Shown: one piece after another, positions 42,987 to 63,543 of the stretch
How positions within the stretch are numbered: position 1 is the first letter of the stretch
How the letters are laid out: the number at the start of each line of letters is the position of its first letter
Assembly (NCBI GenBank): GCA_015494465.1
Contig: WGBD01000004.1
Span: 132,627 to 196,626 of the forward strand
Direction: 5' to 3'
From: Candidatus Omnitrophota bacterium
Lineage (GTDB): Bacteria; Omnitrophota; Gorgyraeia; S143-82
Length of the DNA stretch: 64,000 nt
Notes under the pieces: model-generated
Databases searched by the model: none
Told to the model about the DNA's origin: nothing
The model's input: only the letters and a program-made list of their open reading frames with translations
Program-made: the position numbers and the translations under genes

Positions 42987-43065
42987 AACGGTCTCCTCCG
43001 CTTCCACATCCTATTCAGTTTACCACGCCCTTACGCATGTGCAACATTATTTTAAAAAAGTTTAA

Positions 43066-44115
43066 TTATTGTTTGATCCAACCCATCTCTTCCATCACCG
43101 CCACCGTATAAGGCAGGGTACAGGTAGTGCATATCTTCATCCGCTTGTAATTACCCTCCCAGTGGAGCCTCCGCAGGTACTGGAGGCGCTCCCCTACCCA
43201 GATCTCGTGCAGGGAGTCCTTCCAGGCATCTCCCAACCTCTCACCACCCTCGAGATCCCCACAGCAAGGCGTCACCCGTCCGTCGCACCAGACGAACAAC
43301 CTCTGCCACAGCTGGGCGCAGACGAAGTCGTCCCTCATCCTCACCGGTCTTCCCACATACCTCTGTTCGGCCTCAGGGTCCTTGCCCATGTAGTTGACAT
43401 AGTTCACATAGCTGACTATGTCTACACCCCTTTCCTCCCAGAACCTCCTAAACTCCTCTACCTCCTCCAAGTTCTCCTTCATCTTGACCATGGAGACCCT
43501 GATACAGGGGGTCTTCCTCCCGCTCTTGTCCCTCAACTTTACGAATTCCTCTACATTCCTGACCACCTCTTCGAACCTTGCCCCTACGCGGATGCTCTCG
43601 TAGCGCTCCTTGCGGATCGAATCAAAGGAGATGATCACCCTATCCACACCTGCATCTAATATCCTGCGGGCAAGATCCCCCTTTAATAGGACCCCATTGG
43701 TGTTGAACTGGACATCCACCACCCCCTTGGCCTTGGCGTAAGCGATCATCTCGGGCAACTGGGGATGGAGGAGGGGCTCCCCTCGGTAGTTCAACTTCAC
43801 TGCGTACAGGCCGTAGTCCGCCCCCTCGTCGATGCACTTTTTGTAGAGTTCCCAGTCCATGTAGCCCAGGGAGGGATCCTGGGAGGCGTCTAGGTCGGCT
43901 ATCGTGCGATAACACATGGGACAGCGCAGGTTGCAATAGGAAGTCACCTCTAGGTCCAGATTTAGGGGAAAGTCTTCGACTACGTTATTCTTGGGATTTT
44001 CCACCCACTTTCGTCTATACTCGTGGTACCTGGGCGGTGCCACCTCCTCACAGGGTAGAGGGTCCTTTAACTTCACCTCTTCGTATGTGGGATTGATCTT
44101 TACATCCTGCTTCAT
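43066..44115 (-). CDS. Radical SAM/SPASM-domain protein.
   Basis: CNLRCPMC (CxxxCxxC) and a C-terminal Cys-rich SPASM-like segment (CCGDLEGG...CTTCT). Likely start MKQDVK at 44115; the ORF extends to 44262. Confidence 0.7.
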   Translation of the reverse strand: MKQDVKINPTYEEVKLKDPLPCEEVAPPRYHEYRRKWVENPKNNVVEDFPLNLDLEVTSYCNLRCPMCYRTIADLDASQDPSLGYMDWELYKKCIDEGADYGLYAVKLNYRGEPLLHPQLPEMIAYAKAKGVVDVQFNTNGVLLKGDLARRILDAGVDRVIISFDSIRKERYESIRVGARFEEVVRNVEEFVKLRDKSGRKTPCIRVSMVKMKENLEEVEEFRRFWEERGVDIVSYVNYVNYMGKDPEAEQRYVGRPVRMRDDFVCAQLWQRLFVWCDGRVTPCCGDLEGGERLGDAWKDSLHEIWVGERLQYLRRLHWEGNYKRMKICTTCTLPYTVAVMEEMGWIKQ

Positions 44116-44120
44116 CACCG

Positions 44121-45512
44121 TTATGCCCCCTTGCGCATCTTCCTCATCCCAATCTCTGCTGCCTTTATCACCGGATAAGCGGTGGGAGGTGCGGTCAACA
44201 ACGGATGCGAACCTATCTGCATCGTCGCCAGCTGTACCACATCCATCTTTGCCTGGATACATACGCCGAGCATGTTTATCAGCTCCCCAGCGCTTATCCC
44301 ACCTATCACCTCAGCCCCCAATATGATCCCTGAATCGGGAGACAGTATCAAGCGCACATACTGGGAGTGGACATCGGGTAGTGTCCCAGGATGGCGATCG
44401 ATACCCTTAAATTCCGCTATCACTACCTCAAACCCCTCCTGGAGAGCAAACGACTCTATAAGCCCTGCTGCCGCAAAGGTGGTATCCCCTATTCTAGTGG
44501 AGAATATGGCTATAGTCCCGTTGAAGGTCTTCACCGTGGAGAGGCGGAACAGATTTACTCCAGCTATCCTGGCCTCTGCGCAGGCAGTAGAGGCCAGCAT
44601 CACCGGATTTGGCCTACGGGTTATGAAGTCCCGCTTTTCTGCACAGTCACCCACCGCGAATATGTCCTGGGTGTCGGTGCGCATGTACTCGTCTACCCTG
44701 ATGGATCCGTAAGTATTTATCCACAATCCCGCCTCCTCTGCCAGCTTGGAATTGGGCCGATATCCCATGGCCAAGATCACTGCCTCCGCAGGGACCTCCC
44801 GTCCGTCTTCCAACGAGACCGCCCGCACCTTACCGGCCTCACCTAGGATCTCCTTGACCCGAGCCCCAGTGATTATCTGGACGCCGTCTTTCTTGAGCAA
44901 TTCCTCTACTTCTCGGGCGATCAACTCGTCGAAAGCGCTGGCCAAGATGTAAGGCCTAGCCTCTACGATAGTGACATCCTTCTTCCACTTGCTCGCCAAT
45001 TCGTCGGATACCTCTACGCCGATGAACCCACCCCCTACCACCACTATCTTGTTTACTGACTTCACATAAGAGACCACCTTCTCCAATTCGTGGGCGTACT
45101 TGCTGATCGTAAACACTCCCTCTAGATCTGCACCTTTTAACCAATCCGGAACATAGGGACGCGACCCGGTAGCTATAACCAACTTTTGATACCCGATCCG
45201 CTCCCCAGACCTGCAGGTAAGGGTGTGTTCGTTGGGGTTTATGCTCTCCACCTCGTCCACGATCAGCTCTATCCCGTTGTCGGAAAATATCCTGTTGGGT
45301 ATGACATTCTTGTCCAGGGAATCCAAGGAACCGAAGAGATAAGGGATCCCACAGGGGACCATGGCTACCTCTTCCTTCCTTATCACCGCAACCGTCTTGT
45401 CAGGATAATAGGCCCTGGCGGTAGTAGCGGTCACTATACCTGAGGCACTCCCACCAATAACTACTACATCGTAACTCCTCACGGCCACCTCCCAATATTT
45501 CGGAAACGCCAC
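44121..45512 (-). CDS. FAD-dependent pyridine nucleotide-disulfide oxidoreductase (NADH oxidase/CoA-disulfide reductase family).
   Basis: VVVIGGSASG FAD motif, candidate redox Cys in AMVPCGIPY, and a second Rossmann motif IVVVGGGFIGVE. Confidence 0.75.
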   Translation of the reverse strand: MAFPKYWEVAVRSYDVVVIGGSASGIVTATTARAYYPDKTVAVIRKEEVAMVPCGIPYLFGSLDSLDKNVIPNRIFSDNGIELIVDEVESINPNEHTLTCRSGERIGYQKLVIATGSRPYVPDWLKGADLEGVFTISKYAHELEKVVSYVKSVNKIVVVGGGFIGVEVSDELASKWKKDVTIVEARPYILASAFDELIAREVEELLKKDGVQIITGARVKEILGEAGKVRAVSLEDGREVPAEAVILAMGYRPNSKLAEEAGLWINTYGSIRVDEYMRTDTQDIFAVGDCAEKRDFITRRPNPVMLASTACAEARIAGVNLFRLSTVKTFNGTIAIFSTRIGDTTFAAAGLIESFALQEGFEVVIAEFKGIDRHPGTLPDVHSQYVRLILSPDSGIILGAEVIGGISAGELINMLGVCIQAKMDVVQLATMQIGSHPLLTAPPTAYPVIKAAEIGMRKMRKGA

Positions 45513-45516
45513 CTAA

Positions 45517-47559
45517 TTACTTCTTCTTTACCCAAGCAGCCAGATCGGTGCCAACATATATCTTTATCGCATACTCACCAGACGAGGAAGGGCCTTTTAC
45601 CGTGACGAGGGAAGGGGAAGTATCGGTACCCACTGTTGCCGAGCCCACGACCGAGAGGTCACCACCTACGCTTGCGGAGTCACTGCAGGCAAAGGTACCC
45701 GTAACATCCAGACGGGCACTGGGATTCGTGTTACCCACACCCACATTGCCTCCGCCGGGCTGTAAGACCAAGGGCCTTGGGGTCCAACCCGCTGAGGCAT
45801 CCCCTGCCCCCAGCCGTCCGATGTCTGCGCCGTCGTCGTAACCCACATATACATATCCCCCGTTGCTCACTTGACGCAGTATCAACTGCTCCCCGGCGGT
45901 CAAGGGCTCCGCCACCACCTGCATCACCCCACCGTGGACATCCAAAACATAGTAAGGGGTCGTAGTGTTGATGCCTATTCTACCATTCTGGGTGTCGAAG
46001 CTCATTAGTCCCGATTCTATGGAAAGGGCGTTTTGGGTTGCGTTGACCAGATCCAGATTTATGGCGTTCTGAAGCAGGATCTGAGAGGCGGTCCCGCTCA
46101 AGGTGAGGTCGCTGTTCAATACCAATCCTCCTGAATCCGTGAAGTAGCTCGATTCACTCCCTATGTTGATTATCTTGTGGTTCCTCATGTCCAGATCGCC
46201 CTCGAAGAAGAGTCCACTGGTCACATGGAGCTCATCCGCGGTGGCATCACCCAACCAAGTGGAGCCGTCCACCTCCAGGTTCCCACTCACATAAAGGTCC
46301 TCGTCAGCGCTAGGATTGTTGAAAGCCCCCGAACCAATACGGACATCATCCCCGAACTGGGACTGCCCTGAGCTGACATCCAGTGCGGTCCCGCTATCAC
46401 TGCGGTGGATCACCAATGTGGTGGTCCCGTTAGAGATAAGTTGGCTCTGGCCTTGGACCTGTACATTACCGTTCACCTGAAAGTTGGAGTTGACTGCCAC
46501 CGTACCAGCGTCTGAAGACAAGAGAAGCTGGCCACTATTGGTGGTTATAGTGCCATTCGTGCCGTCGTGCTGGAGCAGGATGGACCGTCTGGTGGGGGGG
46601 GTGTTTCCCGTACCGGAAGATACCTCTACCAGCGAATTCACCGTATCCACCACGAAGACATCGCCGTTGTCGTTATCTTTCCTTATCAAGAGGGCTTCCG
46701 TATAGTTGGTGTCTATGGTAAGGGCATCGCCCCCCGTAGAACTAGACGAGAAGTTAACCGAACCGTCCACATGCAGGTCGCCGGTGATGTAGACATCGCC
46801 TCCGTTAAAGAAACCAGCGGGAGCGCTATCACCTACCAACAGGTTGCCGGGATGGATCTGGACGACTTTGGTACTGTCCGCACCGGAGATGGTGACATTC
46901 CCGTTTTCGTCCACATCCATTATGGTCAGACTCCCATTCACTATCTTAAACCGACTGCTCCCTGCAGATATGTCCACTATCAACTCCGCATTGCTACCCG
47001 GGAGGACACGGATGTTATCCCCCGAGGGGCTGGTGATGTCGACGCTAGGCCCGTCAAAGACGAGGCTCGACTGCAAGGTCGTGGTCCCCTGGACCGTAAG
47101 GTCCGCTTCCATCACATCGTCCACATCACTGCGCAGAAACTGAAGAGAATCGAGACCGTCTAGCTCGTCACTGTTTATACTGTAACCCACGGAAAGCAGG
47201 GGCAGTCTAGGGCTCATCTCCCCGTCGTCGTTCACCTCCACGCTCAACCAATAGGGCTTAGTAAAGTCGAGCTCCAAGGGAGTAACCTCGCCAAGATTGA
47301 GGGAAAAGTAGCCGGTCTGGTCTATCTCCACCGTCTGGGTCTCGGTCCAAAGGGGAGTCCCACCAGTCTCGGAATCGTATATACGGAAGGTGAATCTGTA
47401 AGTACCAGGGGCTATCGGTCCGTTGCTAGTCTTCGTGATCCTTCCCTGATAATGGATCTTGCGAGGGATATCTGCCTTAGCCCTAAAAGGCCAAAGCACC
47501 AAGCAAGATACGCTAAACGAAACGAGTAAAAGGATCCAAGATATCGCGCCCCTATGCAC
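45517..47559 (-). CDS. Secreted beta-helix/adhesin-like protein (Gly/Asn/Ser/Thr-rich).
   Basis: Signal peptide, then repetitive G/N/S/T/D-rich beta-solenoid-like segments. No PEP-CTERM tail. Confidence 0.5.
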   Translation of the reverse strand: MHRGAISWILLLVSFSVSCLVLWPFRAKADIPRKIHYQGRITKTSNGPIAPGTYRFTFRIYDSETGGTPLWTETQTVEIDQTGYFSLNLGEVTPLELDFTKPYWLSVEVNDDGEMSPRLPLLSVGYSINSDELDGLDSLQFLRSDVDDVMEADLTVQGTTTLQSSLVFDGPSVDITSPSGDNIRVLPGSNAELIVDISAGSSRFKIVNGSLTIMDVDENGNVTISGADSTKVVQIHPGNLLVGDSAPAGFFNGGDVYITGDLHVDGSVNFSSSSTGGDALTIDTNYTEALLIRKDNDNGDVFVVDTVNSLVEVSSGTGNTPPTRRSILLQHDGTNGTITTNSGQLLLSSDAGTVAVNSNFQVNGNVQVQGQSQLISNGTTTLVIHRSDSGTALDVSSGQSQFGDDVRIGSGAFNNPSADEDLYVSGNLEVDGSTWLGDATADELHVTSGLFFEGDLDMRNHKIINIGSESSYFTDSGGLVLNSDLTLSGTASQILLQNAINLDLVNATQNALSIESGLMSFDTQNGRIGINTTTPYYVLDVHGGVMQVVAEPLTAGEQLILRQVSNGGYVYVGYDDGADIGRLGAGDASAGWTPRPLVLQPGGGNVGVGNTNPSARLDVTGTFACSDSASVGGDLSVVGSATVGTDTSPSLVTVKGPSSSGEYAIKIYVGTDLAAWVKKK
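46594..46601 (-). repeat. Homopolymeric G8 tract (C8 on the coding strand) inside the beta-helix protein gene.
   Basis: ggtGGGGGGGGtg on the plus strand; on the coding strand it encodes ...NTPPTRR... Confidence 0.8.
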
Positions 47560-47598: not shown

Positions 47599-48687
47599 TT
47601 ACACCTTGCTACTACTAAGTATAACCGATTCTACCTCTCTTACAAAGGTGTTAAAGTCGAACGACTCTAGCCTTTGCCTGGCCTGTCTTCCGGCAGATTC
47701 CAGTATCCCAGGCCTCTCACAGAACCCTTTTACCTCCTCTGCAATCCTCTCGGGTTGGTCGGAGTCCAGGATCAAGCCCTCCCGTTCGTGTCTCACTAAC
47801 TCCACAGGCCCCCCGCAATTGGTAGTAACGACCGGTATCCCACAGGAAAAGGCCTCCAGTAGGGAATAACCAAACCCCTCTCTATCGGACAACATCAAAA
47901 ACAGGTCAACGCTGGCCCAAAACAACCCCACATCCTCGACCTCCCTGAGCCAGATCACCCTATCCTTGGCGGGAGAGTTCTCCAAGAGCCTCTGAAACCA
48001 CTCCCTACGGCCCTGGGGCCCGTCCGCTAGAACGAGCAGACGAAATTTCTCCGGGAGGTGCTCTAGGACCCCCACCGCTAGGCCAAGTCCCTTGGCGGGA
48101 TGGAGCCGGCACATCATTCCCAAGACGAGGGCATCCTCCAGACCAAAGTTCCTCCGGGCGGTGTCTCTAAACAACCTGCGCTTACTCTCCAGCAGGCGTA
48201 CTCGGCCTTCGGGTAGGGCGTTGTAAATTATCTTTATCCGCTCTTGGGGGATCCCTAGATCGGTCATCATGTGTCTGGCAACGGACCTAGACACCGCTAT
48301 GGCGGTCTTACCACAGGCAGGCAGTAGCCTGCGACCCAACTTGGGAGTAAAAAAACCGTGAAAGGTGGTGATGTAGGGCAGACCAAGGTAGCCAGCAGTA
48401 AAGTGGGCTAATACCTGCGTGATACGGGTGTGGGCCCAGAGAAGATCGATTCCTAGCTCACGGGAGTATTTGATTAACCTGGGGATGAGGGCCAGATTCC
48501 CAGGGCTGAAGGCGTTCTTTCCTTTTACATCCAGCAGTAGGTGCTCAGGGACCTCCTTTACCCTGCTCCCCCCACCCGATCCTACCCACACATCGAATCC
48601 TCGCTCTCTTAATGCGGAGGCGACATCCAAGACATAGGTGGTGATCCCTCCCACATTAAGGTGATTACACAGGATCAGTATCCTCAC
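47599..48687 (-). CDS. Glycosyltransferase family 1 (GT-B, GT4-like).
   Basis: MRILILCNHLNVGGITTYV N-terminus, plus the E-x7-E region near the C-terminus. Confidence 0.75.
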   Translation of the reverse strand: MRILILCNHLNVGGITTYVLDVASALRERGFDVWVGSGGGSRVKEVPEHLLLDVKGKNAFSPGNLALIPRLIKYSRELGIDLLWAHTRITQVLAHFTAGYLGLPYITTFHGFFTPKLGRRLLPACGKTAIAVSRSVARHMMTDLGIPQERIKIIYNALPEGRVRLLESKRRLFRDTARRNFGLEDALVLGMMCRLHPAKGLGLAVGVLEHLPEKFRLLVLADGPQGRREWFQRLLENSPAKDRVIWLREVEDVGLFWASVDLFLMLSDREGFGYSLLEAFSCGIPVVTTNCGGPVELVRHEREGLILDSDQPERIAEEVKGFCERPGILESAGRQARQRLESFDFNTFVREVESVILSSSKV

Positions 48688-48691: not shown

Positions 48692-51600
48692 CTAGTCCCC
48701 GTAGGTCTCTTTTAACAACGAAACGATCGTCTCTACCAATTCGTCTGCACTGGAGAACCTCTTGTCCATCAATCCTGAGGAGATACTCTTCACCACGCCC
48801 TTAAGATCACCCGGGATCCACCGCAACGAACCGTCTTTCAATAGGATGAACAGACCACTACCAGCCGATCTTTTCTCCTTAAAACCGTTTACCTGGATCA
48901 ATCTCACCAACACCTTCTCCGACTCACCGTTCCTCACCACATTATAGTCTAACAAATATCCCTTCCCAAATTCGTCTAGGGTGATTACTCTAGGAGTCCT
49001 CCAGAGGAAGAAACGCCTTTTGACCTCCTCCAAAAAGGTCTCCCTGTTTTCTCGGTTCAACCTAACCCTAACCACTAGGTTGCCGTAGGGATTCTCCTCG
49101 CTAGCAGGTCGCTGGGCCCAATCCCACCAGATCCGGCCCGTCGGCGAGATAGCGGAAAAGTTCACCTCGTACACGCCAGGCCCAAGGTCGCCTATGTCGA
49201 CATCTCCCTCGTACACCAATTGGACTCTGCCCCCCTCTTCCTTCAGCCTGGCCAATTCCATTGGGATGTTCATCTCGTGCTCCCAACTGCCACCCACCTT
49301 TTCCACGCTAGCAAGGTGGAGCACCACCTTGACCCTCCGGTTCAGCTCTTCCCTATGTTTCTCCACCTCCTCCCGAGAACTGCCCAGGCCAGGTAAATAC
49401 ATCTCCACACTAAATCGCACCCTTTTCTCGGGTTGCCAGAAAAAGTTGCTTACGGGCTTGGCAAGTCCCTCTACCGTGGGATTCCCAAGCCATTCCACAT
49501 TGTACATCGCATCCCGGATACTGGCTATCGTCTCGTTGATCTCTTCCAGCACGGCAGGGGGGAGAAACCGCGCCTCGGACATAGATCCTACCAGCTCTCC
49601 CAAGTGTCTTAACAGGTAGCCGTAGACTATAGGGCCTTCCTCAAGGGATATGCCCTCTGCCTGGCGGAGTACGGAATCCAATTCCCTTATAGCAGATTTG
49701 AGTCCGGAAAGCCCCTGTGCCAGTTCTTCCGAGCGTTCCAGCTCCCCTTTCCTCAACCTCCGTTCTATCTGAAGGACATTCACCATCACTGACGGATTTA
49801 TCTTGTTCCTCACCGTATCGGCTATCCTATAGAGGTTTATAAGCCTCAAAAACTCCATTAATTCTGCCTTCAAGGCATCGTCTTCGACACTAAATGCCAG
49901 ATCCCTTATCCGCCTCATCACTTCCTCTACTAAGGGCTCCTCTCCTACCAACTTGGCCTTCGTCCTAACCACATTCAGTAGCAAGTCCAGGAGCCTCCGC
50001 TTATAGGAAAAGGGCAGTGAACTATCCAAGACCGAGGGGATCCAATCGTAATCTCTCTTCAAGACCTCCGCTATAGTCGCGCTATCTAGGGACTCGTCTT
50101 GGAATACAAGGCTCCGGAGTACTGCGTTGGGATACCTCGCGCTCAGGGTGGAGAGTATCAGATCGTCCTCCACCTCCTCACCAGATCTCTGCCAAGGCAA
50201 CTGGCCTAAGTGGTCGGTAGATATGGCCAGACGCTGACTGGCAGAGCTGACATCCACATACTTGCTCACCCGTCCCACCCCAGGGAAATCAGGCCTAAGT
50301 GGGAACCAGCTCCTGACTACCAGACCCTTAAAGCCTTTCGCCCTCAGCTCCATGCCTTTGAGATCCCTGATCCCAATCAAGGTCTGGGATTCCACGAACT
50401 CTCCCCAACCCTTGATTAGTCTAAATACGACCTCTCCCTCTTCCCGGGAATACCACAGTTCGTCCAATAACCCCACTTCGTTTAAGAACCAACTTAGGTT
50501 CGTTCCATCGGTGCCTATTATCCCCTCTTTCCTAAACTTGAGATTAGAGAGGTACTGCTTTATCCGATCTACGACCTGGGGATACAACACCTCTTTCTCC
50601 GGCGTTTCACTCAAGTCCACCATGGCCTGTAGCAGTTCTGGATGCGATCTCCGCATCCAATCAACAAAGGACAGAAGGAGGCAATCCAACGGCACATAAT
50701 ACAACCCATACCTGGCCTGGAGCCTGCGGGCCAGCCATCGCCTACCGCTACCCAGGGGTCCGGTCACGAGAACGGTATCGTAGGCCGGTTTCTCCACTGA
50801 CAACCGCTCGGGAAACGCCGGCAAGGCCACTTCGAAGATGGTACCCGTACCCTGCTTCGTGGCCTCTATCCTTGCCTGGAGGTCGAGCCTCTCCCTAGAA
50901 TAGGCCCCCACGCCTTCCCCTTCGGTCAGCGAGGCCATTGATATCCTACCCCCTACCAGGTTCAGGACATCACGGAGGTGAATAAAGCCATATCCCCCTG
51001 CCTCCACCACATCCAGTGAGGAGAGGACCGGTTCCTCAAATACCATAGGCCTTATGTGGGTAGGGATACCTTTGCCGTAATCCTGGACCCGTATGAGCAA
51101 CTCCCCTCCGGAGCACCAGGCACTCACCGCTACCCGGCCTCTCCCTTCCTTGACCGCCCGCAACAGCAGGTGGCGAAGCGCGGTCTTTATCGCAAAGTAG
51201 GTATAGACCTTGCCCTTTACATCCACCCTTACCTCGATTTCCACCTCTGGATAGTCCTTTCGCAATCTCTCCACCTCCTTAAGGACGAAGGCCCTAAGAT
51301 CGATCGGCAGGAATACATCTTCTATCTTGTATAGTACCAGCTCCATCTCCTTCCTAAGTTCATCGGCCCATACGAACAATCCCTCCTCGCCCTTCTCCCT
51401 GCTCTGGGTCTGAATCTTACCCAGGGCAAGGAAAATCGTCCGCAAGGTCTGTATAACATCCTCCCTATCCCTCACCGACAACAATCTTTCTCTTACGCGG
51501 ATCGTAACATCGTACTTACCTAGCTTATCGAACAGCTCGCTGAGTAACCTTCGGACCCATATCGAAATCTTGCGATGGATCGGGATAAAGACAAGCCTGC

Positions 51601-54600
51601 CGACATCCTTGCAAGGATAGCGGTGCCAAGCCCGAGCCCGATTCCAGTAGAACTCAAGCACTGTCTCGTCCGCCATCAAATCAATCCGATAGTTATCTCC
51701 GTATCTATCCAAGATCCAACGGAGAAGCTCTTCCCGGGCCTCCAAGGGTAGGTCAGCTTTATCCACCACTTCCAGTCCCTGATCTTTTAGACGAATCTCT
51801 AGCTCTCCTACCCGCTTCACCCCGTCACTCACCTCATCGCGAATCCGGACTTCGTAGCGTCCCGCGCTTAAAGAGGTCAACAGGAGATGCCCACCCGAAA
51901 ACCTCACCTTAACCGACTTAGGCAGGGTAGAGACGACCTTTATTCCTCCCATTAGGGCAAACACCCCAAGGGGTAAGCCAATCTGGTGAGGAAAGAGAAA
52001 CCATAACGCCAGCAACAATCCCGTCAAAAACGGGATCCTAACATCCTTCCAGGCCTCTAAGATCTCCCTAAACTCATTCCTATTGGAGAGCAGATAGATC
52101 CTATCAGGATGCATCCGCATGTCTTCCAAGATCATAGAGGGCTCCACATACTTGAGATCGTATTCTGCAACACTCCTCTCCCCTAAACCAGGAACCATGC
52201 AGAAGAGACGATTCTCACTGCCAACCACTGCGGACCAATTTTTCTTGAGGTAAGAAAGTCGGACGAATCGATACTCAGAGCTAAGCGAACGCCTGAATCG
52301 ATTATACCGGACCAGGAGGATTACCGGATCCTTTTTCACCGGAATTACCTCAAATTTCTGGTCCTTCCACCTAGGTGGGAGCCTCTTGCGCAGGTTGTAT
52401 ATCCAGTGAGCCCTACTCCGTTCCTCAAAGAGCTCGTCCAAGGCCTGTGTACGCACCTGTACCTCCACCTTTACCCCTTTTACCCTACCCTGAAAGACCA
52501 AGTAAGGCCTCCCTTCCACCCTTTTCACCTCTTTGGACAGCTCCTCTCCCTCATCGAATATGCCCTCAACCTGCTTGCCTACCTTCTCCAGCGTTTTCTC
52601 GTCCGGCACCACTATCTTCCCTGCCAAGAGGTCTGCCATCTCCTCTACCCGCTCCTTCCGCCCTGAAGATATCTTCATCCATATCGAAGAGAGGGCCTTG
52701 ATTCGGAAGCTGTGCGGATACTCGTCCAGCTCCGGCAAGTTGGCGTACAACCTCTCCCACATGGCATTGGATACCTCCTCAACCGTATACCCGTGAAGGA
52801 CCTTCGCCTTTATCTCCGCCTTGAGGCGGTAGAACTCAACCGGATTTCTCAGGGCAAACATGACATCGGAAAGCTCCCTATACAGCTCCCACATACCTAA
52901 ACGCTCCGCTAGAGGCAAGAAGATAAACACGATCCTGTTCAGATCCGGATCGCTCTCTCTAAGGGAATAACCGAAAAGGTAAAACTCCGCCACTACCCGG
53001 TTGAACAAAAGGATCAAGGCCTTTCTCCCCCACTTGTGAGAGGTAACCAACTGGTAGGCATAATCGATGGCATCCCGTAAGTAGTGCTCTCCCGGCAAGG
53101 GCTTGGTGGGATCTAGATCCGGAGAGAAGGCCCTTAAGGCACGGTATATCCTCAACAACTCCCGAAGATTCCCTTTCTCCTTTTCCCCAATCCTCAATCC
53201 GGGATCCTCTAAAAGCTTTTCAAGATGAGGGGCATCCAACCTAGACAACAAGGCCATCTTTTTCAACAGGCTATCCTTGGGATACTTTCGACTAACCAAT
53301 AGATAAAGGACCTTCACGAACTCGCTTTCGGTGACATTTCTCCGGAAGATCTTGTTGTTGTACCTGGCCTTGGCCTTCTCGAATAAACGCTTGTAGGGAT
53401 CTTTCAGTACAATCCCTGGTTCTACCCTTTCGAGTTTCCCAGAGCCTGCTCTAGGAAACTGCCTCAAAAACTCCCTAGCGATGTGCTCCATAGCAGAGAC
53501 GAAGCCCTCTTGGGGCTCAGGCAACCTCACCCCTTCTCTCTCCAAGGCCGAAGCCAAGGCGATAGCCCAATCCCGTTTTTTCCTAACCAGTTTTTCTTGG
53601 AGGGCAATTACCGCCAGTTCTTCTAACAACCACCTCTCCCTTTCCGATCCTCGATATAGGCGATACCCAGGCATGGGCCCGTAAACCTCTTCCACCCAAG
53701 CCAGATAAGACTTGGCCTTCTTCCCCAATAAAGTCGATACCTTTTTCAAGAAGATCTTCCTTTTATTAGGATCCATGCGCAGGAGTGCGTGAAGGCCTTC
53801 GTGGGTCCTCACCACATCCTTTACCAGATTTAACCCCGTCACCAAGTCATCGCCTGAGATCTGGTAAAAATCAGAAACTGCCTCCAGGAGACTCACCCAT
53901 ATGTAACCCACCCTGGTCTGCCAATCTCGGGGATACACCCAGGAAAGGACTTCGTCTATGTAATGGATCCTGCCCAGCTCGTCCGTCCAGGCCAAACCAG
54001 TGGATCTAAAGATGTAGTAGAGATCCGGATCAAGCTTTTCCACCTTTTTCTGGAGCCTATCCCAGAGAGGAAGGGGCAGACGCACTGGATAATGCCTTAG
54101 ATCCCCCGAATGGAACCAGCCCTTCGGCAAGACCGCCCTAGCTATAGAGAGCCACACCCCATAGCCTCTAGGCGAAAGGTCCCTTCCGTCTATGCAGACG
54201 GGAGGAGCAAGTAAGGAAACCTCCCAAGGATCGAGTATTCTACGCAGGTATTCCCGTCTCTCCTCTTCAACGAGAGAATATATCCTGGGACGAAGGACCG
54301 CAGTGGAGACCCCCTTCTCTTCTAAGGTCCTGGCCAGGTCCTTGCTGTGGAATCCCCCGCATATCACTATCCACTTCCCAGCGGAACCACTAACCCAGGG
54401 CTGGATTGAGTCGACAAAGGCAAAGCTCCTGCGCCTGGCCACCCGTAAAAACTCCCGCCAATGAGGCACCTTTTCAAGTACAGCGGAATAATCCGCAAGA
54501 TCGTCCAGAAGACTCAGAAGCGCCCAGGACCTCTTCGCCTGGGAGAGGTTCTTTTGGTACAGGGCCACATCCTCCAGGCCCAGGATCTCGTATTCTCCTG

Positions 54601-54976
54601 CGTAGCAGAGACCAAGGAACTCCCCCGCAGAAACCTTACCGGCCTTTAACAACCTCTCTAATACAGTCCTAAACTTCCTCGGTGAAAGGCGCTTCAAAAA
54701 GACGAACTCAGACAGCTCTAGCTTCCCGGAACCCGCCCCCTCTAAAAAGATCCCCTTTACCTCCCAGCGCCTCCTGATCTCCTCAAATGCCTCGACTATT
54801 CTCCTCTGACAGGCAGAACTGTAGTGTATGTCCTCGATTATCAAGACACGGGCGGGATCTATGTCACCGTGGACCAGGTAAGCGGACCTTAGGGATGCAG
54901 CCGAAGACCATCCCCCTACCGGGAGAGTAGCGATCCCTACGACGAAGGCCAAGAGGACACGCCAGATCCGATCCAT
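48692..54976 (-). CDS. Giant multi-domain protein: RelA/SpoT-homolog module (degenerate HD plus (p)ppGpp-synthetase-like nucleotidyltransferase), an internal two-helix transmembrane hairpin, a GHKL (HATPase_c) ATPase domain and a P-loop NTPase/kinase-like domain.
   Basis: PLAERLGMWELYRELSDVMFALRNPVEFYRLKAEIKA, FRIKALSSIWMK, DLLAGKIVV and VKVEVQVRTQALDELFEERSRAHWIY parallel RelA/SpoT PLAHRLG...ELEEL.F..L.P..Y..I, GRVKHLYSIW, DVRAVRIV and EVQIRT...A.HW.Y. GHKL boxes are VQDYGKGIP, GGYGFIHLRDVLNLVGG and GTGTIFEV. Walker A is LVTGPLGSGRR. The ORF extends to GTG 55042; ATG 54976 (MDRIWRVLLAFVVGIATLP) is the more likely start. Confidence 0.65.
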   Translation of the reverse strand: MDRIWRVLLAFVVGIATLPVGGWSSAASLRSAYLVHGDIDPARVLIIEDIHYSSACQRRIVEAFEEIRRRWEVKGIFLEGAGSGKLELSEFVFLKRLSPRKFRTVLERLLKAGKVSAGEFLGLCYAGEYEILGLEDVALYQKNLSQAKRSWALLSLLDDLADYSAVLEKVPHWREFLRVARRRSFAFVDSIQPWVSGSAGKWIVICGGFHSKDLARTLEEKGVSTAVLRPRIYSLVEEERREYLRRILDPWEVSLLAPPVCIDGRDLSPRGYGVWLSIARAVLPKGWFHSGDLRHYPVRLPLPLWDRLQKKVEKLDPDLYYIFRSTGLAWTDELGRIHYIDEVLSWVYPRDWQTRVGYIWVSLLEAVSDFYQISGDDLVTGLNLVKDVVRTHEGLHALLRMDPNKRKIFLKKVSTLLGKKAKSYLAWVEEVYGPMPGYRLYRGSERERWLLEELAVIALQEKLVRKKRDWAIALASALEREGVRLPEPQEGFVSAMEHIAREFLRQFPRAGSGKLERVEPGIVLKDPYKRLFEKAKARYNNKIFRRNVTESEFVKVLYLLVSRKYPKDSLLKKMALLSRLDAPHLEKLLEDPGLRIGEKEKGNLRELLRIYRALRAFSPDLDPTKPLPGEHYLRDAIDYAYQLVTSHKWGRKALILLFNRVVAEFYLFGYSLRESDPDLNRIVFIFLPLAERLGMWELYRELSDVMFALRNPVEFYRLKAEIKAKVLHGYTVEEVSNAMWERLYANLPELDEYPHSFRIKALSSIWMKISSGRKERVEEMADLLAGKIVVPDEKTLEKVGKQVEGIFDEGEELSKEVKRVEGRPYLVFQGRVKGVKVEVQVRTQALDELFEERSRAHWIYNLRKRLPPRWKDQKFEVIPVKKDPVILLVRYNRFRRSLSSEYRFVRLSYLKKNWSAVVGSENRLFCMVPGLGERSVAEYDLKYVEPSMILEDMRMHPDRIYLLSNRNEFREILEAWKDVRIPFLTGLLLALWFLFPHQIGLPLGVFALMGGIKVVSTLPKSVKVRFSGGHLLLTSLSAGRYEVRIRDEVSDGVKRVGELEIRLKDQGLEVVDKADLPLEAREELLRWILDRYGDNYRIDLMADETVLEFYWNRARAWHRYPCKDVGRLVFIPIHRKISIWVRRLLSELFDKLGKYDVTIRVRERLLSVRDREDVIQTLRTIFLALGKIQTQSREKGEEGLFVWADELRKEMELVLYKIEDVFLPIDLRAFVLKEVERLRKDYPEVEIEVRVDVKGKVYTYFAIKTALRHLLLRAVKEGRGRVAVSAWCSGGELLIRVQDYGKGIPTHIRPMVFEEPVLSSLDVVEAGGYGFIHLRDVLNLVGGRISMASLTEGEGVGAYSRERLDLQARIEATKQGTGTIFEVALPAFPERLSVEKPAYDTVLVTGPLGSGRRWLARRLQARYGLYYVPLDCLLLSFVDWMRRSHPELLQAMVDLSETPEKEVLYPQVVDRIKQYLSNLKFRKEGIIGTDGTNLSWFLNEVGLLDELWYSREEGEVVFRLIKGWGEFVESQTLIGIRDLKGMELRAKGFKGLVVRSWFPLRPDFPGVGRVSKYVDVSSASQRLAISTDHLGQLPWQRSGEEVEDDLILSTLSARYPNAVLRSLVFQDESLDSATIAEVLKRDYDWIPSVLDSSLPFSYKRRLLDLLLNVVRTKAKLVGEEPLVEEVMRRIRDLAFSVEDDALKAELMEFLRLINLYRIADTVRNKINPSVMVNVLQIERRLRKGELERSEELAQGLSGLKSAIRELDSVLRQAEGISLEEGPIVYGYLLRHLGELVGSMSEARFLPPAVLEEINETIASIRDAMYNVEWLGNPTVEGLAKPVSNFFWQPEKRVRFSVEMYLPGLGSSREEVEKHREELNRRVKVVLHLASVEKVGGSWEHEMNIPMELARLKEEGGRVQLVYEGDVDIGDLGPGVYEVNFSAISPTGRIWWDWAQRPASEENPYGNLVVRVRLNRENRETFLEEVKRRFFLWRTPRVITLDEFGKGYLLDYNVVRNGESEKVLVRLIQVNGFKEKRSAGSGLFILLKDGSLRWIPGDLKGVVKSISSGLMDKRFSSADELVETIVSLLKETYGD

Positions 54977-55084
54977 AATCAAAGTATAACTTTGGCTAGG
55001 GTTTTTGACAAACCTTTTAAAAAGGGGCGCCGGGACGGACACCAGGTGGCTAATGCCCGTCCCTGAGGGGGGAGATGATTACTA

Positions 55085-56740: not shown

Positions 56741-58558
56741 CTACTTCTCTCTCAGGTAGCTGTCGATACCCTCAGCGGCCTTTTTACCGTCAGCCACCGC
56801 AGAGATGGCATCCCGGACCGAGTTGCCTATGTCACCACCAGCAAAGACCCCCTCCACCGTGGTCATCATACGCTCGTCCAGTTTGACCCGGGAGCCGACC
56901 CACTGTATCTTTTCCTTAATGGCGTCAGGGGTGAAGGACAGGTCTGCGCCCTGACCGACCGCCTCTATCACCGTATCCGCAGGGATCTCTACGGCGTCGT
57001 TTTCGTCGAAGCTGGGATTGAACTTACCAGATTCATCCCTTAACCTCAGCACCTTGTAGGCCCTAAAACCGACCACCTTGCCGTTCTTTACCAGGATCCC
57101 TTCCTTGCCCCGAGGGGCACCTCTCTTCACCTCGAATTTAACCCCCTCTTCCAAGGCCTCCTCAATCTCCTCTTTAAAGGCAGGCATCTCGTCCCAATCT
57201 TCCAAACAGACTACCGTTGCATTCACCTCACCGTAGGTGATCATCTGGAGCCTCAGGGCACTCCTAACCGCATCCATTGCTACATTCCCTCCACCGATGA
57301 CGACCACACGCTTGCCGATCTCGACCTTCTCTCCCATCCTCAGCTTGCGCAAGAAGTCCACAGCCTGCCACACCCCTTCCGCAGACTCGTTGGCTACACC
57401 TGCCTTGAGCCCCACTTGCAGACCGCAGGCCAAGTAGACCGCATCGTAATCCTTCAAGAGATCCTCGAAGTTGACATCCTTGCCCACCTCAACGCCGGTC
57501 TTAATGTTCACGCCTATTGCCTCTATGAGGCTCACATCCTTACCTATCACATCGTTAGGCAGTCGATAAGCGGGTATACCGTAGCGGAGCATACCCCCCA
57601 CTTCCTCGTTCTTCTCGAAGACATCCACATCGTAACCCATCCTCCTCAAGTAGAAAGCACAGCTCAATCCACTGGGCCCCGCACCAACTATAGCCACCTT
57701 CTTACCCAATGACTGGGACGGTTTAAACTCCTCCACCAACTTGTCGTAGTCTACCTGCTTAACCGCGTAACCCTTGAGGTACATAATCTGGAGGGAATCA
57801 CCCCGCAACGATATCGCACAATTGTCCTGACAACGATGGGTACATATAGTACCACACACTCCCGAAAGCGGGTTGTCCTCCAACATTATCCTCACCGCAC
57901 TTTCGTATCTCTCAAAGTATATCTCACGAATGTAGTCGCCTATTTTCATCCTAGCAGGACAACCGAGACGACACACATCGCACTCCATACAACGCATCGC
58001 CTCTTGGAGGGCCCGTTCCCGATCGTACCCAGTGGTGATCAACTCGAAGCCCTTCTTCCTCTCCTCCGCAGGTAGTATCTCCACTGGCACCGCATCCACA
58101 TGGAATATAGAGGTCTCAGGAGAAGACTGCCACCCCTTGTTCTCTAGTCCGGCCTTATCCGGTTGGAAGTAATAGACATCCGGATCGTAAGATATCCAGG
58201 TAAATTCCTTAGTCATTGCAAGCGATCCGCTAGGGCAAACATCCACACATAGCGCGCAAAAACAGCACCTACCGTAATCCATCCAAGGCCTTTGGGGTTT
58301 TCTCCCTGGCATCTCTTTGGGCAAAGAGGGATCTTCCACCATAGTAATCGCCGAAGTCGGACAGATGTCCGCACAATTCCCGCAACCTATACACTTATCC
58401 AGATCGTTAGTGTGGAAACCCCGATATCTCGGTGAGACCTCCTTTTTTTCCGAAGGGATCTTCACCGTTATAGGACGCTGGAAGAGAAACTTTATCGCCA
58501 GTAAAGGCTCCAAAAGGGACTTGCCGTGATCGTAATAGAGGTACTTCTTTTCAGCCAT
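56741..58558 (-). CDS. FAD/NAD(P)-dependent oxidoreductase with an N-terminal 2x[4Fe-4S] ferredoxin domain (glutamate synthase small-subunit-like).
   Basis: CIGCGNCADICP and CCFCALCVDVCP; a GltD-type CDVCRLGCP cluster; VAIVGAGPSGLSCA and VVIGGGNVAMD Rossmann motifs. Confidence 0.75.
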   Translation of the reverse strand: MAEKKYLYYDHGKSLLEPLLAIKFLFQRPITVKIPSEKKEVSPRYRGFHTNDLDKCIGCGNCADICPTSAITMVEDPSLPKEMPGRKPQRPWMDYGRCCFCALCVDVCPSGSLAMTKEFTWISYDPDVYYFQPDKAGLENKGWQSSPETSIFHVDAVPVEILPAEERKKGFELITTGYDRERALQEAMRCMECDVCRLGCPARMKIGDYIREIYFERYESAVRIMLEDNPLSGVCGTICTHRCQDNCAISLRGDSLQIMYLKGYAVKQVDYDKLVEEFKPSQSLGKKVAIVGAGPSGLSCAFYLRRMGYDVDVFEKNEEVGGMLRYGIPAYRLPNDVIGKDVSLIEAIGVNIKTGVEVGKDVNFEDLLKDYDAVYLACGLQVGLKAGVANESAEGVWQAVDFLRKLRMGEKVEIGKRVVVIGGGNVAMDAVRSALRLQMITYGEVNATVVCLEDWDEMPAFKEEIEEALEEGVKFEVKRGAPRGKEGILVKNGKVVGFRAYKVLRLRDESGKFNPSFDENDAVEIPADTVIEAVGQGADLSFTPDAIKEKIQWVGSRVKLDERMMTTVEGVFAGGDIGNSVRDAISAVADGKKAAEGIDSYLREK

Positions 58559-58671
58559 ATCTCACCCCTGAATCTAAGAATCCCACTGACTCACACCATC
58601 CCTAAAAATTGGCTAATATTATATACCCGATAAAAAAAAATTTAAACCAAATCTGCGCATCATCCTAGCGG

Positions 58672-58938
58672 TTATAGGATGTACACGAAAATCCCTCCCA
58701 ATAAACCGCCGATAACTCCCCATCCCGCAATCCCGGCCACCTTTCTCCACTTTGGATTCCCCGGTTTCAATATTTCTATCTTTTTCACATAGATTATTTC
58801 GCACCCCTTGTCATCTCTGGTCGTACTCGTAGGGCGATAGCCGGACCACGGCTTGAGAGTGATCTTTTCCAGGCGCAGAAATCCGTCTCTACCTACTCCC
58901 CTCACGAGTCTATAGTTGCATAGCAAACCCTTGATCAA
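58672..58938 (-). CDS. Small protein with a C-terminal glycine-zipper transmembrane segment.
   Basis: 88-aa ORF with a TTG start. AGIAGWGVIGGLLGGIFVYIL is glycine-zipper-like. It may be a shifted continuation of the upstream gene. Low-GC region. Confidence 0.25.
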   Translation of the reverse strand: MIKGLLCNYRLVRGVGRDGFLRLEKITLKPWSGYRPTSTTRDDKGCEIIYVKKIEILKPGNPKWRKVAGIAGWGVIGGLLGGIFVYIL

Positions 58939-58949
58939 TATCTGATCAC

Positions 58950-59447
58950 CTACCCGAACGAAAGTATTTTTCGGGCTATATCTTCGTCGTCAGTCAGGAG
59001 GTGATTATTTGAGAAACCTCGCATATCAAATGCCTCGCTATAATACCTTACCCACCCCGTCCAGTCTCCATGGGAATATCTCGCCTCCAGATATGGTCCC
59101 TTTAAGTTGTCCCCGTATACCAGTGAAAAATCAGCTATGTTCAGTGTATCGCCCGAATCCCTATGGCTGATGTCTATCCACGAATTGCTGTGATGAAGGG
59201 AGACGACCAGACCGTATATAGTGTAATCGTAAAGGGCAACGACTTCGTATTCGTCTCCTTCCACACTCTTTAATACGAACTTCATTGGTGTTATCCTTAC
59301 CTGTCTCGGCCAAGAATATAACTGAGGCAGGATTTCGTTCTTACCCGGCAAGGCCTTGGGCTTGATACTGGCAGGGATATATATCACCATACACGCGAGC
59401 CCGCTAATAAAGACTATTCTTCTGACGAATTTGATAAGTTTGACCAT
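58950..59447 (-). CDS. Hypothetical membrane-anchored or secreted protein.
   Basis: N-terminal hydrophobic segment (IVFISGLACMVIYI). Stop is TAG. Lies immediately downstream of lgt. Confidence 0.4.
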   Translation of the reverse strand: MVKLIKFVRRIVFISGLACMVIYIPASIKPKALPGKNEILPQLYSWPRQVRITPMKFVLKSVEGDEYEVVALYDYTIYGLVVSLHHSNSWIDISHRDSGDTLNIADFSLVYGDNLKGPYLEARYSHGDWTGWVRYYSEAFDMRGFSNNHLLTDDEDIARKILSFG

Positions 59448-59450
59448 GGA

Positions 59451-60233
59451 CTACCTTTCTCTATCTTTCTTCTCTTGCTTTCCCCAAATATCCCTCAGCC
59501 CCGCGGAAAACACAAGAATCCCTATCAATGAGAGCCACTGAAACAAGGTTAACCCCAATATGTGTGGACTAACACGCAAAAACTCCTCAAAGAACCTAAA
59601 GCCGAAATAAGTTATACCGAAAATCACAAACAATTCTCCCGGCCTTGCGGTTTTTCTTTTACTCATAAGGTAAAGAAATAACCCCAACATAAACACCGAT
59701 TCGTACAGTTGTGTGGGATGTCTCAGCACACCGTCTCCGAAGTCAACTCCCAGACGACATCCTGTGGGCACTCCGAAGCAACACCCCCTAAAGAAGCATC
59801 CCAAACGCCCTATTGCAATGCCTATAGCAAGGGCAGGGGCAAAAAGATTCCCAAATCTTTCTCTTACCCCAACGCCGGCTTTCACCACCTTTGCCCCGAA
59901 GGTACCTCCCAAAATTCCCCCGGTCATGGTACGGGAAGAAAACAATGAAAATGGCAGAGTAGTAAAAAATTGCCTTATATTCAATAGATTGGCAAACAAA
60001 ACTGCGCCCAGGATTCCACCAAAAATCGACCCAAAGGCCACTAGCGGTGGCCTCCAATCATCACTCGAAATTCCACCCTCCTTCTTAAGAAACAAATATA
60101 CGAAAATGCCCACCGCAAACCCTAGCCCACTAAAGAACGGATAGGAATATATGTGGATTCCACCTATAGAAAAAAGGATAGGTCCTACTCCCCGATAGGA
60201 GACGCCTTCTGGAACATAATGAAAATCCAGCAT
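59451..60233 (-). CDS. lgt: Prolipoprotein diacylglyceryl transferase.
   Basis: Lgt signature GRLGCFFRGCCFG and the HPTQLYES motif. Polytopic. Stop is TAG. Confidence 0.8.
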   Translation of the reverse strand: MLDFHYVPEGVSYRGVGPILFSIGGIHIYSYPFFSGLGFAVGIFVYLFLKKEGGISSDDWRPPLVAFGSIFGGILGAVLFANLLNIRQFFTTLPFSLFSSRTMTGGILGGTFGAKVVKAGVGVRERFGNLFAPALAIGIAIGRLGCFFRGCCFGVPTGCRLGVDFGDGVLRHPTQLYESVFMLGLFLYLMSKRKTARPGELFVIFGITYFGFRFFEEFLRVSPHILGLTLFQWLSLIGILVFSAGLRDIWGKQEKKDRER

Positions 60234-60234
60234 A

Positions 60235-60507
60235 CTACTGCACCATTTGGAGGCCTACTGCGTATATTCCCAATGTAATACAAGCCCCCATCAACAACAC
60301 CCAAGGCAAGGCAAGATAAACCACACCCCACAACCAAGCACGATCATACTCTTTAGCTTTTACATAGCGATAAATCTTGTATCCAACAAACATGGTCATT
60401 AAAAATACTACCCCCAAAACAAGGGCTGAAATCACATTTCTATACACTGGAGAGTAAGGAGAGCCCGCCGAAAAAAAGTCCGATCCAATCAAAACCAACG
60501 AAAGCAC
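60235..60507 (-). CDS. Small integral membrane protein.
   Basis: 90 aa with three predicted transmembrane helices. Stop is TAG. Confidence 0.35.
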   Translation of the reverse strand: MLSLVLIGSDFFSAGSPYSPVYRNVISALVLGVVFLMTMFVGYKIYRYVKAKEYDRAWLWGVVYLALPWVLLMGACITLGIYAVGLQMVQ

Positions 60508-60596
60508 CTAAGAAATATATAAATAGATAAAAACCGCAAGACTTAAAATAGCCAAACCAATCATCTTTAAGACCTTATTCATATTATCCACCTCCC

Positions 60597-61250: not shown

Positions 61251-61519
61251 TCCTTTTGGGCTGACTTTACATCAAAATTATACCTGTCTAAGAAAGTGGT
61301 TATCGTCAGAGGAAAGATGTGTTCATTGACATGTTCTATCTTCTTTGATTTTGGCCAAAGAAGAAAATCCTCTGGGAGGAAGGAAAACGCCTTTTTCAAA
61401 AATTCATCACTGATCTTTGGTCCACAGCAACTGCAGGCAAATCCCCTTTTTAGTATATCCTCTAAATCAAAGGCAAAGGTATTGTCTATGTCATCCAAAT
61501 ACTCGGCAACATCCACCAT
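61172..61519 (-). CDS. Hypothetical protein.
   Basis: 115-aa ORF containing a CSCCG motif. Low-GC region. Confidence 0.3.
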   Translation of the reverse strand: MVDVAEYLDDIDNTFAFDLEDILKRGFACSCCGPKISDEFLKKAFSFLPEDFLLWPKSKKIEHVNEHIFPLTITTFLDRYNFDVKSAQKECVHIITTDLKRISFSVYSMWHRGRK

Positions 61520-61572
61520 ATCAGCTATTGAGAAGGTATTACCCTACGCATCCTTAAACAAAAACGAAACAG

Positions 61573-63479: not shown

Positions 63480-63543
63480 ACCAAGTATAATGATCCTCTT
63501 ATCTCAGATGTTCATTGCACACCTCTTTTAGAGAAACCTCATT

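Follow-up and report, generated by a model that had tools for sequence, protein, structure and literature searches.

To our knowledge, the enzymes that make up the superfamily of RelA/SpoT homologs (RSH) take two forms, namely stringent factors under the control of the ribosome and small synthetases, hydrolases or toxins that stand alone. Here we describe an RSH module in a giant protein of about 2,100 residues, which is encoded on the minus strand of a 64,000-nucleotide stretch of DNA (henceforth the window) from Candidatus Omnitrophota bacterium (assembly GCA_015494465.1, contig WGBD01000004.1, positions 132,627 to 196,626 of the forward strand). This module is derived from the long RSH enzymes; its hydrolase is dead, its donor site for ATP/Mg2+ is intact and its acceptor site is altered. 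The small alarmone synthetases (SAS), the toxSAS (CapRel, FaRel2 and Tas1) and the exported synthetases (e.g., SaEAS; PMC12691689) are single-domain proteins or fusions for toxin delivery, accompanied by an immunity or antitoxin partner. In contrast, the giant protein keeps the pseudo-HD domain and linker of the long RSH, has no such partner or secretion domain and lies in a conserved housekeeping and exopolysaccharide (EPS) neighbourhood, with FTHFS and a family 4 glycosyltransferase (GT4) as its neighbours; neither by architecture nor by context is it a toxSAS or an exported alarmone synthetase. The Archaeovorins of the Omnitrophota, very long signal-bearing proteins of uncertain topology that string together HATPase_c, HAD and glycolytic enzyme domains (bioRxiv 10.1101/2023.11.21.568195), resemble it as signal-bearing mosaics of normally cytoplasmic enzyme domains, and differ from it in length (10-85 against 2.1 thousand amino acids) and in their HEAT, TPR, SecA and C39 modules, none of which it has. 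RSH domains are not mentioned in that giant-gene survey, our literature searches brought up no account in which RSH is fused to GHKL or Tiki domains, and the RSH surveys searched are silent on transmembrane segments, fusions to kinases and architectures of a comparable kind.

The RelA/SpoT-derived module

Residue numbers marked ORF count from the GTG at 55042 that opens the longest open reading frame (ORF); those of the public gene call, P0001, which are used for all other domain ranges, equal the ORF number minus 22. The initial annotation had placed a RelA/SpoT module in the first half of the protein, and this is borne out by Pfam RelA_SpoT (PF04607), which matches ORF residues 780-884 with 35.1 bits in the whole protein and 38 bits in the isolated segment (cut-off 27); in the members of the family it scores 35.8-55.6 bits. 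The best sequence match among solved structures is to residues 165-349 of Bacillus subtilis Rel (E 5e-7), the family profile matches Rel 8acu at E 3.9e-19, and the best Foldseek matches are the N-terminal regions of long RSH enzymes (Rel and SpoT), over 350-480 aligned columns, with a nucleotidyltransferase-type SYNTH fold that is superposable on Rel or SAS structures. As in the RelA-type (hS) long RSH, whose HD is inactive and whose SYNTH is active, the HD fold, linker helices and SYNTH domain follow each other in this order and the HD dyad is lost. The giant protein thus holds a genuine SYNTH domain that descends from the N-terminal region of a long RSH, and the HD domain that comes with it is dead.

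It differs from the long RSH in being embedded at residues ~530-870 of a 2094-residue signal-bearing membrane protein and in lacking the C-terminal TGS, helical, zinc-finger (ZFD) and ACT/RRM region. Neither TGS nor ACT domains match anywhere in the giant protein at E values up to 10, and the full-length NCBIfam model spoT_relA (TIGR00691) aligns with ORF residues 707-883 (E 3.5e-13) over its positions 140-317 only, reaching 48.8 bits, which is one tenth of its cut-off of 499.2. Because this C-terminal region is missing, no sensing of the ribosome or of tRNA is expected.

To compare active sites, the protein was aligned to RelSeq (1vj7, in which the chain index equals the residue number) and each column was then checked across the family. 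The donor site is kept: R241, K243, S247, K251, D264, E323 and Q325 of RelSeq correspond to ORF R780, K782, S786, K790, D804, E860 and Q862, and the AHW motif of SYNTH is likewise present. These ATP/Mg2+ donor residues and AHW are conserved in all seven RSH-bearing members of the family, with the K251 position being Lys in six and Arg in the ortholog P0002. Accordingly, the stretches FRIKALSSIW, DLLAGKIVV, EVQVRT and AHWIY, earlier read as synthetase motifs, align column by column with R241/K243/K251, D264, E323/Q325 and AHW, respectively. Among the residues that contact GDP/GTP, only the stacking Tyr (Y308, ORF Y847) is kept, and by this sequence comparison the domain does not qualify as a guanine-specific synthetase.

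At the hydrolase positions the giant protein has NVTESEFVKVL and LLSRLDA, and its relatives have GE[AT]Y[LV][DH]H together with LLH or LVH but without the Asp; the catalytic His-Asp dyad is lost. The degenerate HD region of the initial annotation hence survives as a dead HD fold; the motif equivalence given for it does not, as GEHYLRDAIDYAYQL aligns with the helix preceding the canonical IKLADRLHN and not with GEPYISHPL, which puts the earlier pairing ~95 residues out of register.

The remaining domains

Two AlphaFold2 (AF2) models built from the family alignment cover residues 1-1040 and 1041-2094, with predicted local distance difference test (pLDDT) values of 74.8 and 73.8, respectively; the domain boundaries that follow from these and from the sequence are collected in Table 1. 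The protein begins with positive charges, a hydrophobic core of ~17 residues and the small residues SSA-AS, judged from sequence and hydropathy, and this kind of N-terminus recurs in all family members and in the related giants described below. The hydrophobic segment at ORF 25-48 agrees with the signal-like or transmembrane-like N-terminus noted initially, as does a bipartite one at ORF 1005-1039 with the central hydrophobic hairpin; the latter consists of two stretches of 11-15 residues split by PHQ and has an equivalent in the relatives.

Two further N-terminal modules had gone unnoticed in the initial annotation. One is an alpha/beta domain with the fold of the Tiki/ChaN/EreA superfamily, with its pairs of His-bearing motifs and with Glu and Arg conserved: EDIH, LEGA, GLED, R183 and GGFH were matched to the superfamily motifs by inspection, and D49, H51, E79, E135, R183 and H210 are invariant in all eight family members. 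The Pfam model PF04187 (Cofac_haem_bdg) finds no match in the giant protein at E values up to 10, and a related giant, P0154, has a sub-threshold match (22.2 bits; cut-off 27.7). The domain therefore belongs to this superfamily by fold and motifs and not by a Pfam model. What sets it apart within the wider Tiki/ChaN/TraB/GumN/erythromycin-esterase superfamily is that it heads multidomain proteins of 1,000-3,700 residues here. The other module is a helical domain whose HExxH motif is preceded by WTDxxGxIHxIDE, followed by a conserved EE...QE and kept in seven of the eight members. The same module is carried by an otherwise unrelated 3600-residue ORF (L089:1701-12503) in which no Pfam model has a match.

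In the second half of the protein, residues 1156-1390 correspond in fold to the dimerisation helices (DHp) and the catalytic ATPase (CA) domain of class I sensor histidine kinases (HK853, ZraS and MprB) and pseudo-kinases (DivL). Pfam HATPase_c matches ORF 1285-1408 with 39.7 bits (46.4 bits for the isolated segment; cut-off 26.4), Foldseek aligns ~265 columns with HK853, ZraS and other DHp+CA structures at E 1e-6 and also matches DivL (4q20), and a profile matches HK853 chain residues 28-233. Unlike in these kinases, the H-box His is missing from the family: HisKA has no match, and the aligned DHp-like helices of every member are without a conserved His. The nucleotide-binding boxes are likewise not present as a full set, since G1 is kept (DYGKG, of the DxGxG type), G2 is reduced to GGYG and the N-box Asn, found in P0003, P0004 and P0005, is Arg in the giant protein and in P0002. 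No response regulator or receiver-domain gene is seen among the neighbouring genes scanned. The GHKL ATPase of the initial annotation is consequently upheld in its position, its HATPase_c match and its HK853-like DHp+CA fold; it has neither the acceptor His nor the N-box Asn.

The adjoining nucleotide-kinase-like domain has as its sole sequence support a weak profile match to the dephospho-CoA kinase 2grj (E 0.005). The Walker A that had been claimed for an NTPase at this place is degenerate, as GPLGSGRR lacks the Lys and the Ser/Thr of the motif and the corresponding position in the relatives (GGLGTGRR, GKPKTMRQ and GKNKNEIR) is not conserved; the AF2 strand-loop-helix pattern would fit a P-loop kinase fold. 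Toward the C-terminus, the motifs LGPGVYEVNF...GRIWWDW...ENPYGN of the beta-sandwich are conserved in four other full-length members, P0002-P0005, and the sandwich and terminal domain are absent from P0006, P0007 and P0008; this region has no sequence match in Pfam or the PDB. A CBM48/AMPK-type carbohydrate module, suggested for the beta-sandwich by eye, found no support in these searches. Scans of the giant protein against PADLOC and PHROGs returned nothing meaningful.

Table 1. Features of the giant gene, its product and the adjoining genes; residues are in P0001 numbering.
Feature	Residues	Coordinates	Strand	Basis or remark
Giant gene		48692..54976	(-)	2094 codons from ATG 54976 (probable start); stop codon 48692-48694
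Terminator-like hairpin and T-run, 3' of the upstream FTHFS gene		55026..55043	(-)	overlaps GTG 55042
Promoter-like TTGTCA-17-TATACT		54983..55011	(-)	10/12 consensus matches; consensus match only; ends 7 nt before ATG 54976
N-terminal signal-peptide-like/anchor segment, MDRIWRVLLAFVVGIATLPVGGWSSA	1-26	54899..54976	(-)	hydropathy
Tiki/ChaN/EreA-like alpha/beta domain	~30-250	54227..54889	(-)	motifs EDIH, LEGA, GLED, RRRSFAF, CGGFHS
Helical domain with HExxH (THEGLHAL)	~300-512	53441..54079	(-)	AF2 helices 302-512; motif 53789-53803
Degenerate HD (hydrolase) domain	~528-676	52949..53395	(-)	catalytic His and Asp lost
Linker helices and RelA/SpoT synthetase (SYNTH)	~677-870	52367..52948	(-)	Pfam match 52391-52705
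Beta-rich domain	~885-965	52082..52324	(-)	AF2 secondary structure; no family match
Central hydrophobic hairpin	977-1019	51920..52048	(-)	hydropathy; AF2 confidence low
Small alpha/beta domain after the hairpin	~1054-1152	51521..51817	(-)	AF2 model 2, pLDDT ~80-90; no family assignment
DHp-like helical pair without phospho-acceptor His	~1156-1218	51323..51511	(-)	Foldseek, profile
GHKL/histidine-kinase-type ATPase (CA) domain		50807..51313	(-)	Pfam match 50819-51190; Foldseek E 1e-6
Nucleotide-kinase-like alpha/beta domain	1401-1570	50267..50776	(-)	AF2 strand-loop-helix pattern; P-loop GPLGSGRR at 50738-50761
Low-confidence linker	~1572-1630			AF2
Helical bundle	~1604-1824	49505..50167	(-)	AF2 model 2; no family match
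C-terminal beta-sandwich and terminal alpha/beta domain	~1829-1972; 1975-2094	48695..49492	(-)	AF2 model 2, pLDDT 80-90
GT4 glycosyltransferase gene		47599..48687	(-)	Pfam Glycos_transf_1 and Glyco_transf_4; begins 4 nt past the giant-gene stop
Secreted Gly/Ser/Thr/Asn-rich tail-fibre-like protein, 680 aa, signal peptide		45517..47559	(-)	sequence, hydropathy, PHROG tail-fibre match E 5e-6

Family, gene structure and neighbourhood

The giant protein belongs to a very rare family with a lineage-restricted architecture built from known domains. A word-indexed search of 5.8 billion proteins returned P0001 and P0002 only, and an exhaustive phmmer search of 1.84 billion cluster representatives with ORF residues 620-1800 as the query returned seven relatives, P0002 and P0003-P0008, the latter six being ~30% identical to the giant protein; past these relatives, only histidine kinases and RSH enzymes of the ordinary kind are matched (E 1e-11 and weaker for the latter). 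When 241 million metagenome records were scanned with a five-sequence alignment of the family, two further loci were added, and a scan of the GTDB species-representative genomes with the giant-protein alignment found no relative. These counts support the initial annotation as far as the architecture is very rare. The adjacent FTHFS has its closest relatives among GTDB representatives (Omnitrophota, Atribacterota and others) at no more than 44% identity, and the lineage is therefore poorly sampled.

The full architecture, in the same domain order, is found in P0003 and P0004, which are 2138 and 2183 aa long, respectively. In P0005 (1847 aa) the HExxH and RSH modules are lost and the remainder is kept; P0006 and P0007 (~1550 aa) are complete genes that stop after the kinase-like domain; and P0008 (1080 aa), also a complete gene, consists of the N-terminal half only, with the signal, the Tiki-like, HExxH, pseudo-HD, SYNTH and beta domains and neither the hairpin nor the kinase half. 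The invariant core of the family is thus the Tiki-like head and not an RSH-GHKL fusion, because P0005 has lost the RSH module and P0008 has no kinase half; the linkage of alarmone synthesis to a GHKL/kinase module, with which the initial annotation had characterized the protein, is contradicted as a conserved core by these two and by P0006 and P0007.

The signal and Tiki-like head also recur on other giants of 2,000-3,700 residues (P0152-P0160) with different modules: a HAD, an intact-looking HD_4 and a weak RelA_SpoT domain in P0152, HD_4 and SYNTH in P0155, PGM and PFK in P0158, Pyr_redox and an acetyltransferase in P0157, and a full hybrid histidine kinase (PAS/GAF/HisKA/HATPase/REC) in P0159. 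The signal peptide and the Tiki/ChaN-like head, which is split by an insert, are all that P0152-P0160 have in common.

The gene is a single one under purifying selection. Counted from the GTG, the ORF on the minus strand runs uninterrupted over 48692-55042 (2116 codons), and the public gene call P0001 is the identical protein beginning at ATG 54976 (2094 aa). The ATG is probably the true start because the GTG lies inside a terminator-like hairpin and a promoter-like sequence lies downstream of it, and the public gene calls agree; the single ORF described in the initial annotation is therefore continuous and one gene, with its 2116 residues probably to be shortened to 2094. The ortholog P0002, from another assembly and with the same neighbouring genes as in the window, shares 83% identity with the giant protein and aligns collinearly from end to end, interrupted by a single internal gap of one residue. 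A codon-level comparison of the two gives a ratio of nonsynonymous to synonymous substitution rates (dN/dS) of 0.12 overall and of 0.06-0.17 in each 150-codon block, with the lowest values (0.06-0.09) over residues 601-1050, i.e., the HD-SYNTH-hairpin part. Independent metagenome contigs encode the same protein as P0001. The collinear ortholog, the uniformly low dN/dS and the independent contigs together rule out a frameshift or assembly fusion, by which several genes might have been mistaken for one.

We observe a conserved three-gene module of the giant gene, a GT4 gene and a gene for a secreted tail-fibre-like protein, which the initial annotation had not noted. GT4 lies directly 3' of the giant gene in seven of nine loci (the window locus, a second contig with an identical protein, and those of P0002, P0005, P0006, P0007 and P0008). 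The proteins after GT4 in the P0005 and P0008 loci are 49% and 40% identical to the fibre-like protein of the window, making these orthologs (40-49%) better conserved than the giant proteins themselves (~29% identity). The fibre-like protein has repeated motifs of the type 'IGINTTTP..LDV.G', and its match to phage tail fibres is weak. FTHFS lies upstream of the giant gene in four genomes. In the window genome the module heads a PEP-CTERM/EPS export cluster, as flavoprotein, radical-SAM/SPASM, Poly_export, Wzz/GNVR, XrtA/PEP-CTERM-associated ATPase and tyrosine autokinase genes follow downstream; no exosortase gene is seen in the scanned part of this cluster. The cluster occupies 38242-44262 (-) and includes the radical-SAM/SPASM gene at 43066-44262 and a gene for AmmeMemoRadiSam system protein B at 38242-39051. 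Antitoxin, immunity and secretion-system genes are absent from among the neighbours scanned. In the P0004 locus (L083, GCA_054040295.1, 10001-16552) the giant gene directly follows mraZ-rsmH-ftsL-ftsI, at the usual place of the mur genes that extend this division/cell-wall cluster, and is itself followed by a gene for a 950-residue protein without a family match. The theme common to the loci is the cell envelope.

Elsewhere in the window, a second large lineage-restricted orphan, a 1088-residue ORF without a Pfam family (23063-26329, minus strand), has one homolog (71% identity) among the 5.8 billion proteins; the gene just upstream of it (26516-28138) encodes a PilJ/HAMP/MCP chemoreceptor. 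A tmRNA gene with the tag ADDALIAEAEAIANGSALALA (21678-22067, minus strand) overlaps the 5' end of an OmpA-family ORF call (20942-21748), and a tRNA-Gly(CCC) gene lies at 17603-17676 (minus strand). Over 58000-64000, with lgt (59451-60233) and a short fragment of radical-SAM type (61573-62163) among the ORFs, the G+C content falls from ~0.53 to 0.42-0.47, and this could be a compositionally distinct segment. Across positions 1-64000 the minus strand carries nearly every long ORF and the GC skew is negative throughout, consistent with a single replichore whose genes are co-oriented with replication.

Proposed function and significance

Hydrophobic segments serve the giant protein as an anchor, and its gene is inherited together with those for a glycosyltransferase and a secreted fibre. 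Our preferred reading, to which we give a probability of about 40%, is that of an envelope-associated protein with a SYNTH domain that is probably an active pyrophosphokinase, whose acceptor is not nameable from sequence. SYNTH would take the beta-gamma pyrophosphate from ATP and pass it to an acceptor, possibly one other than GDP/GTP, with no hydrolase opposing this activity, which would be set by the status of the envelope or of the surface fibre and EPS and not by the ribosome or translation. A membrane anchor and the kinase-like half take the place of the long RSH's C-terminal domains, which sense the ribosome, and this half, in the window ortholog, would act as a dimerisation or regulatory (pseudo-kinase) module and not as a phosphotransfer kinase.

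Several observations weigh against such a reading. The acceptor residues K297, K304, N306 and H312 of RelSeq are S, E, R and Q in the giant protein and variable in its relatives, and the RxKD motif is absent; since the residues for a guanine-nucleotide acceptor are not kept, the alarmone product proposed in the initial annotation cannot be claimed. The N-box Asn is Arg1295 (in LLLRAVKEG), Walker A has Arg for both its Lys and its Ser/Thr, and the ATPase motifs are degenerate in P0006 and P0007. The modules are individually dispensable, as seen in P0005 (no RSH and HExxH) and P0008 (no C-terminal half), and two loci have a different context, with P0003 adjoining an alginate-export porin gene and P0004 following ftsI. 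The topology poses a further difficulty: the N-terminus looks like a Sec signal, and if it is one, the RSH domain would be extracytoplasmic, where ATP is scarce. RSH and GHKL domains need ATP, and this need, the short halves of the hairpin (11-15 residues) and its flanks, both of which are positively charged in the relatives by inspection, would fit a cytoplasm-facing re-entrant hairpin.

It is possible, if doubtful, that the protein is instead an assembly platform for a glycosylated surface fibre or EPS, in which the Tiki/ChaN-like domain, perhaps with the HExxH module, does the work and the RSH, GHKL and P-loop domains are non-catalytic nucleotide-binding or structural relics. The residues of the Tiki-like domain alone are invariant in all eight members, this head recurs on other giants with unrelated enzyme modules, the RSH module and the kinase half can each be missing, and the HD dyad, N-box Asn, Walker A and acceptor residues of the giant protein are degenerate. 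However, relic domains usually lose the catalytic residues that SYNTH strictly keeps for ATP/Mg2+ in seven of seven RSH-bearing members at ~29% overall identity, and the HD-SYNTH region shows the lowest dN/dS of the gene. We consider it unlikely that the N-terminal half (Tiki-like, HExxH and RSH) is Sec-exported and acts extracellularly or in a target cell, in the manner of exported alarmone synthetases or of RSH domains borne by toxins, with the hairpin and C-terminal half as a tether or delivery device. The signal-peptide-like N-terminus of all members and related giants would agree with this, as would a synthetase without a hydrolase and the toxin effector domains (RRSP, PMT and HopBA1) among the structural neighbours of the Tiki-like domain. 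Sec-exported alarmone synthetases that are toxic when cytoplasmic do exist (PMC12691689), and the giants of Omnitrophota are predicted to be largely extracellular despite their cytoplasmic-type enzyme domains (bioRxiv 10.1101/2023.11.21.568195). Yet the RSH module, with its pseudo-HD and linker helices, belongs to the long-RSH type, and it matches SAS, toxSAS and exported synthetases much less well; immunity, antitoxin and secretion-system genes and delivery domains are missing from the vicinity; the gene is under strong purifying selection in stable synteny with housekeeping and EPS genes; and the positive hairpin flanks of the relatives fit a cytoplasmic hairpin.

A role in conflict or defence, in which a toxSAS-like enzyme would pyrophosphorylate nucleotides or tRNA and be coupled to a 'conflict-type' GT4, is far less probable. 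The GT4 neighbour does have a secondary match to PF20706 (GT4-conflict, E 7e-7), the RSH region has a weak PADLOC match (PDC-S33, E 0.0025) and the acceptor site has diverged, as in the tRNA-modifying toxSAS; however, the PADLOC match is marginal and confined to the generic RSH core, ordinary GT4 models score far better, CapRel and FaRel2 are only distant structural matches, no antitoxin or sign of mobile elements is present, and the chromosomal place beside FTHFS is conserved in four genomes. Least credible of all is that the protein is simply a long version of an ordinary stringent factor or of a classical two-component sensor kinase, or that an artefact of assembly or a frameshift has joined several genes. 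In its favour, the two Pfam domains are common ones, but TIGR00691 scores 48.8 against 499 with no TGS or ACT domain, the H-box His and an adjacent response regulator are lacking, the same continuous ORF on independent contigs and in a collinear 83% ortholog has uniform dN/dS, and relatives of 2138 and 2183 residues share its domain order.

A further, improbable scenario has an active SYNTH moved from the ribosome to the envelope, with its acceptor changed and the enzyme exported or membrane-tethered, controlling the glycosylation or assembly of the fibre or EPS through a non-guanine substrate or a local alarmone pool. Candidate non-guanine substrates would be an adenine nucleotide, a sugar-nucleotide or lipid-linked intermediate, or a protein, and the Tiki-like and HExxH domains would be sensory or processing partners. 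If true, this would constitute a previously undescribed input/output logic for the RSH superfamily.

Mosaic giants of uncultivated bacteria are already known for unexpected domain combinations, and several of the modules here look degenerate. What the present protein shows is a long-RSH core that lacks its hydrolase and ribosome sensing, is altered in its acceptor site, is built into a signal-bearing membrane protein beside modules that resemble hydrolases and kinases, and has genetic ties to a glycosyltransferase and a secreted fibre. The finding also hints that uncultivated bacteria hold a wider set of giant proteins, so far undescribed, in which a signal peptide and Tiki-like head are joined to interchangeable enzyme modules. 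If the synthetase is active, pyrophosphokinase signalling or modification would be wired to the cell envelope, and the module would offer a defined fragment with which to find a new RSH substrate.

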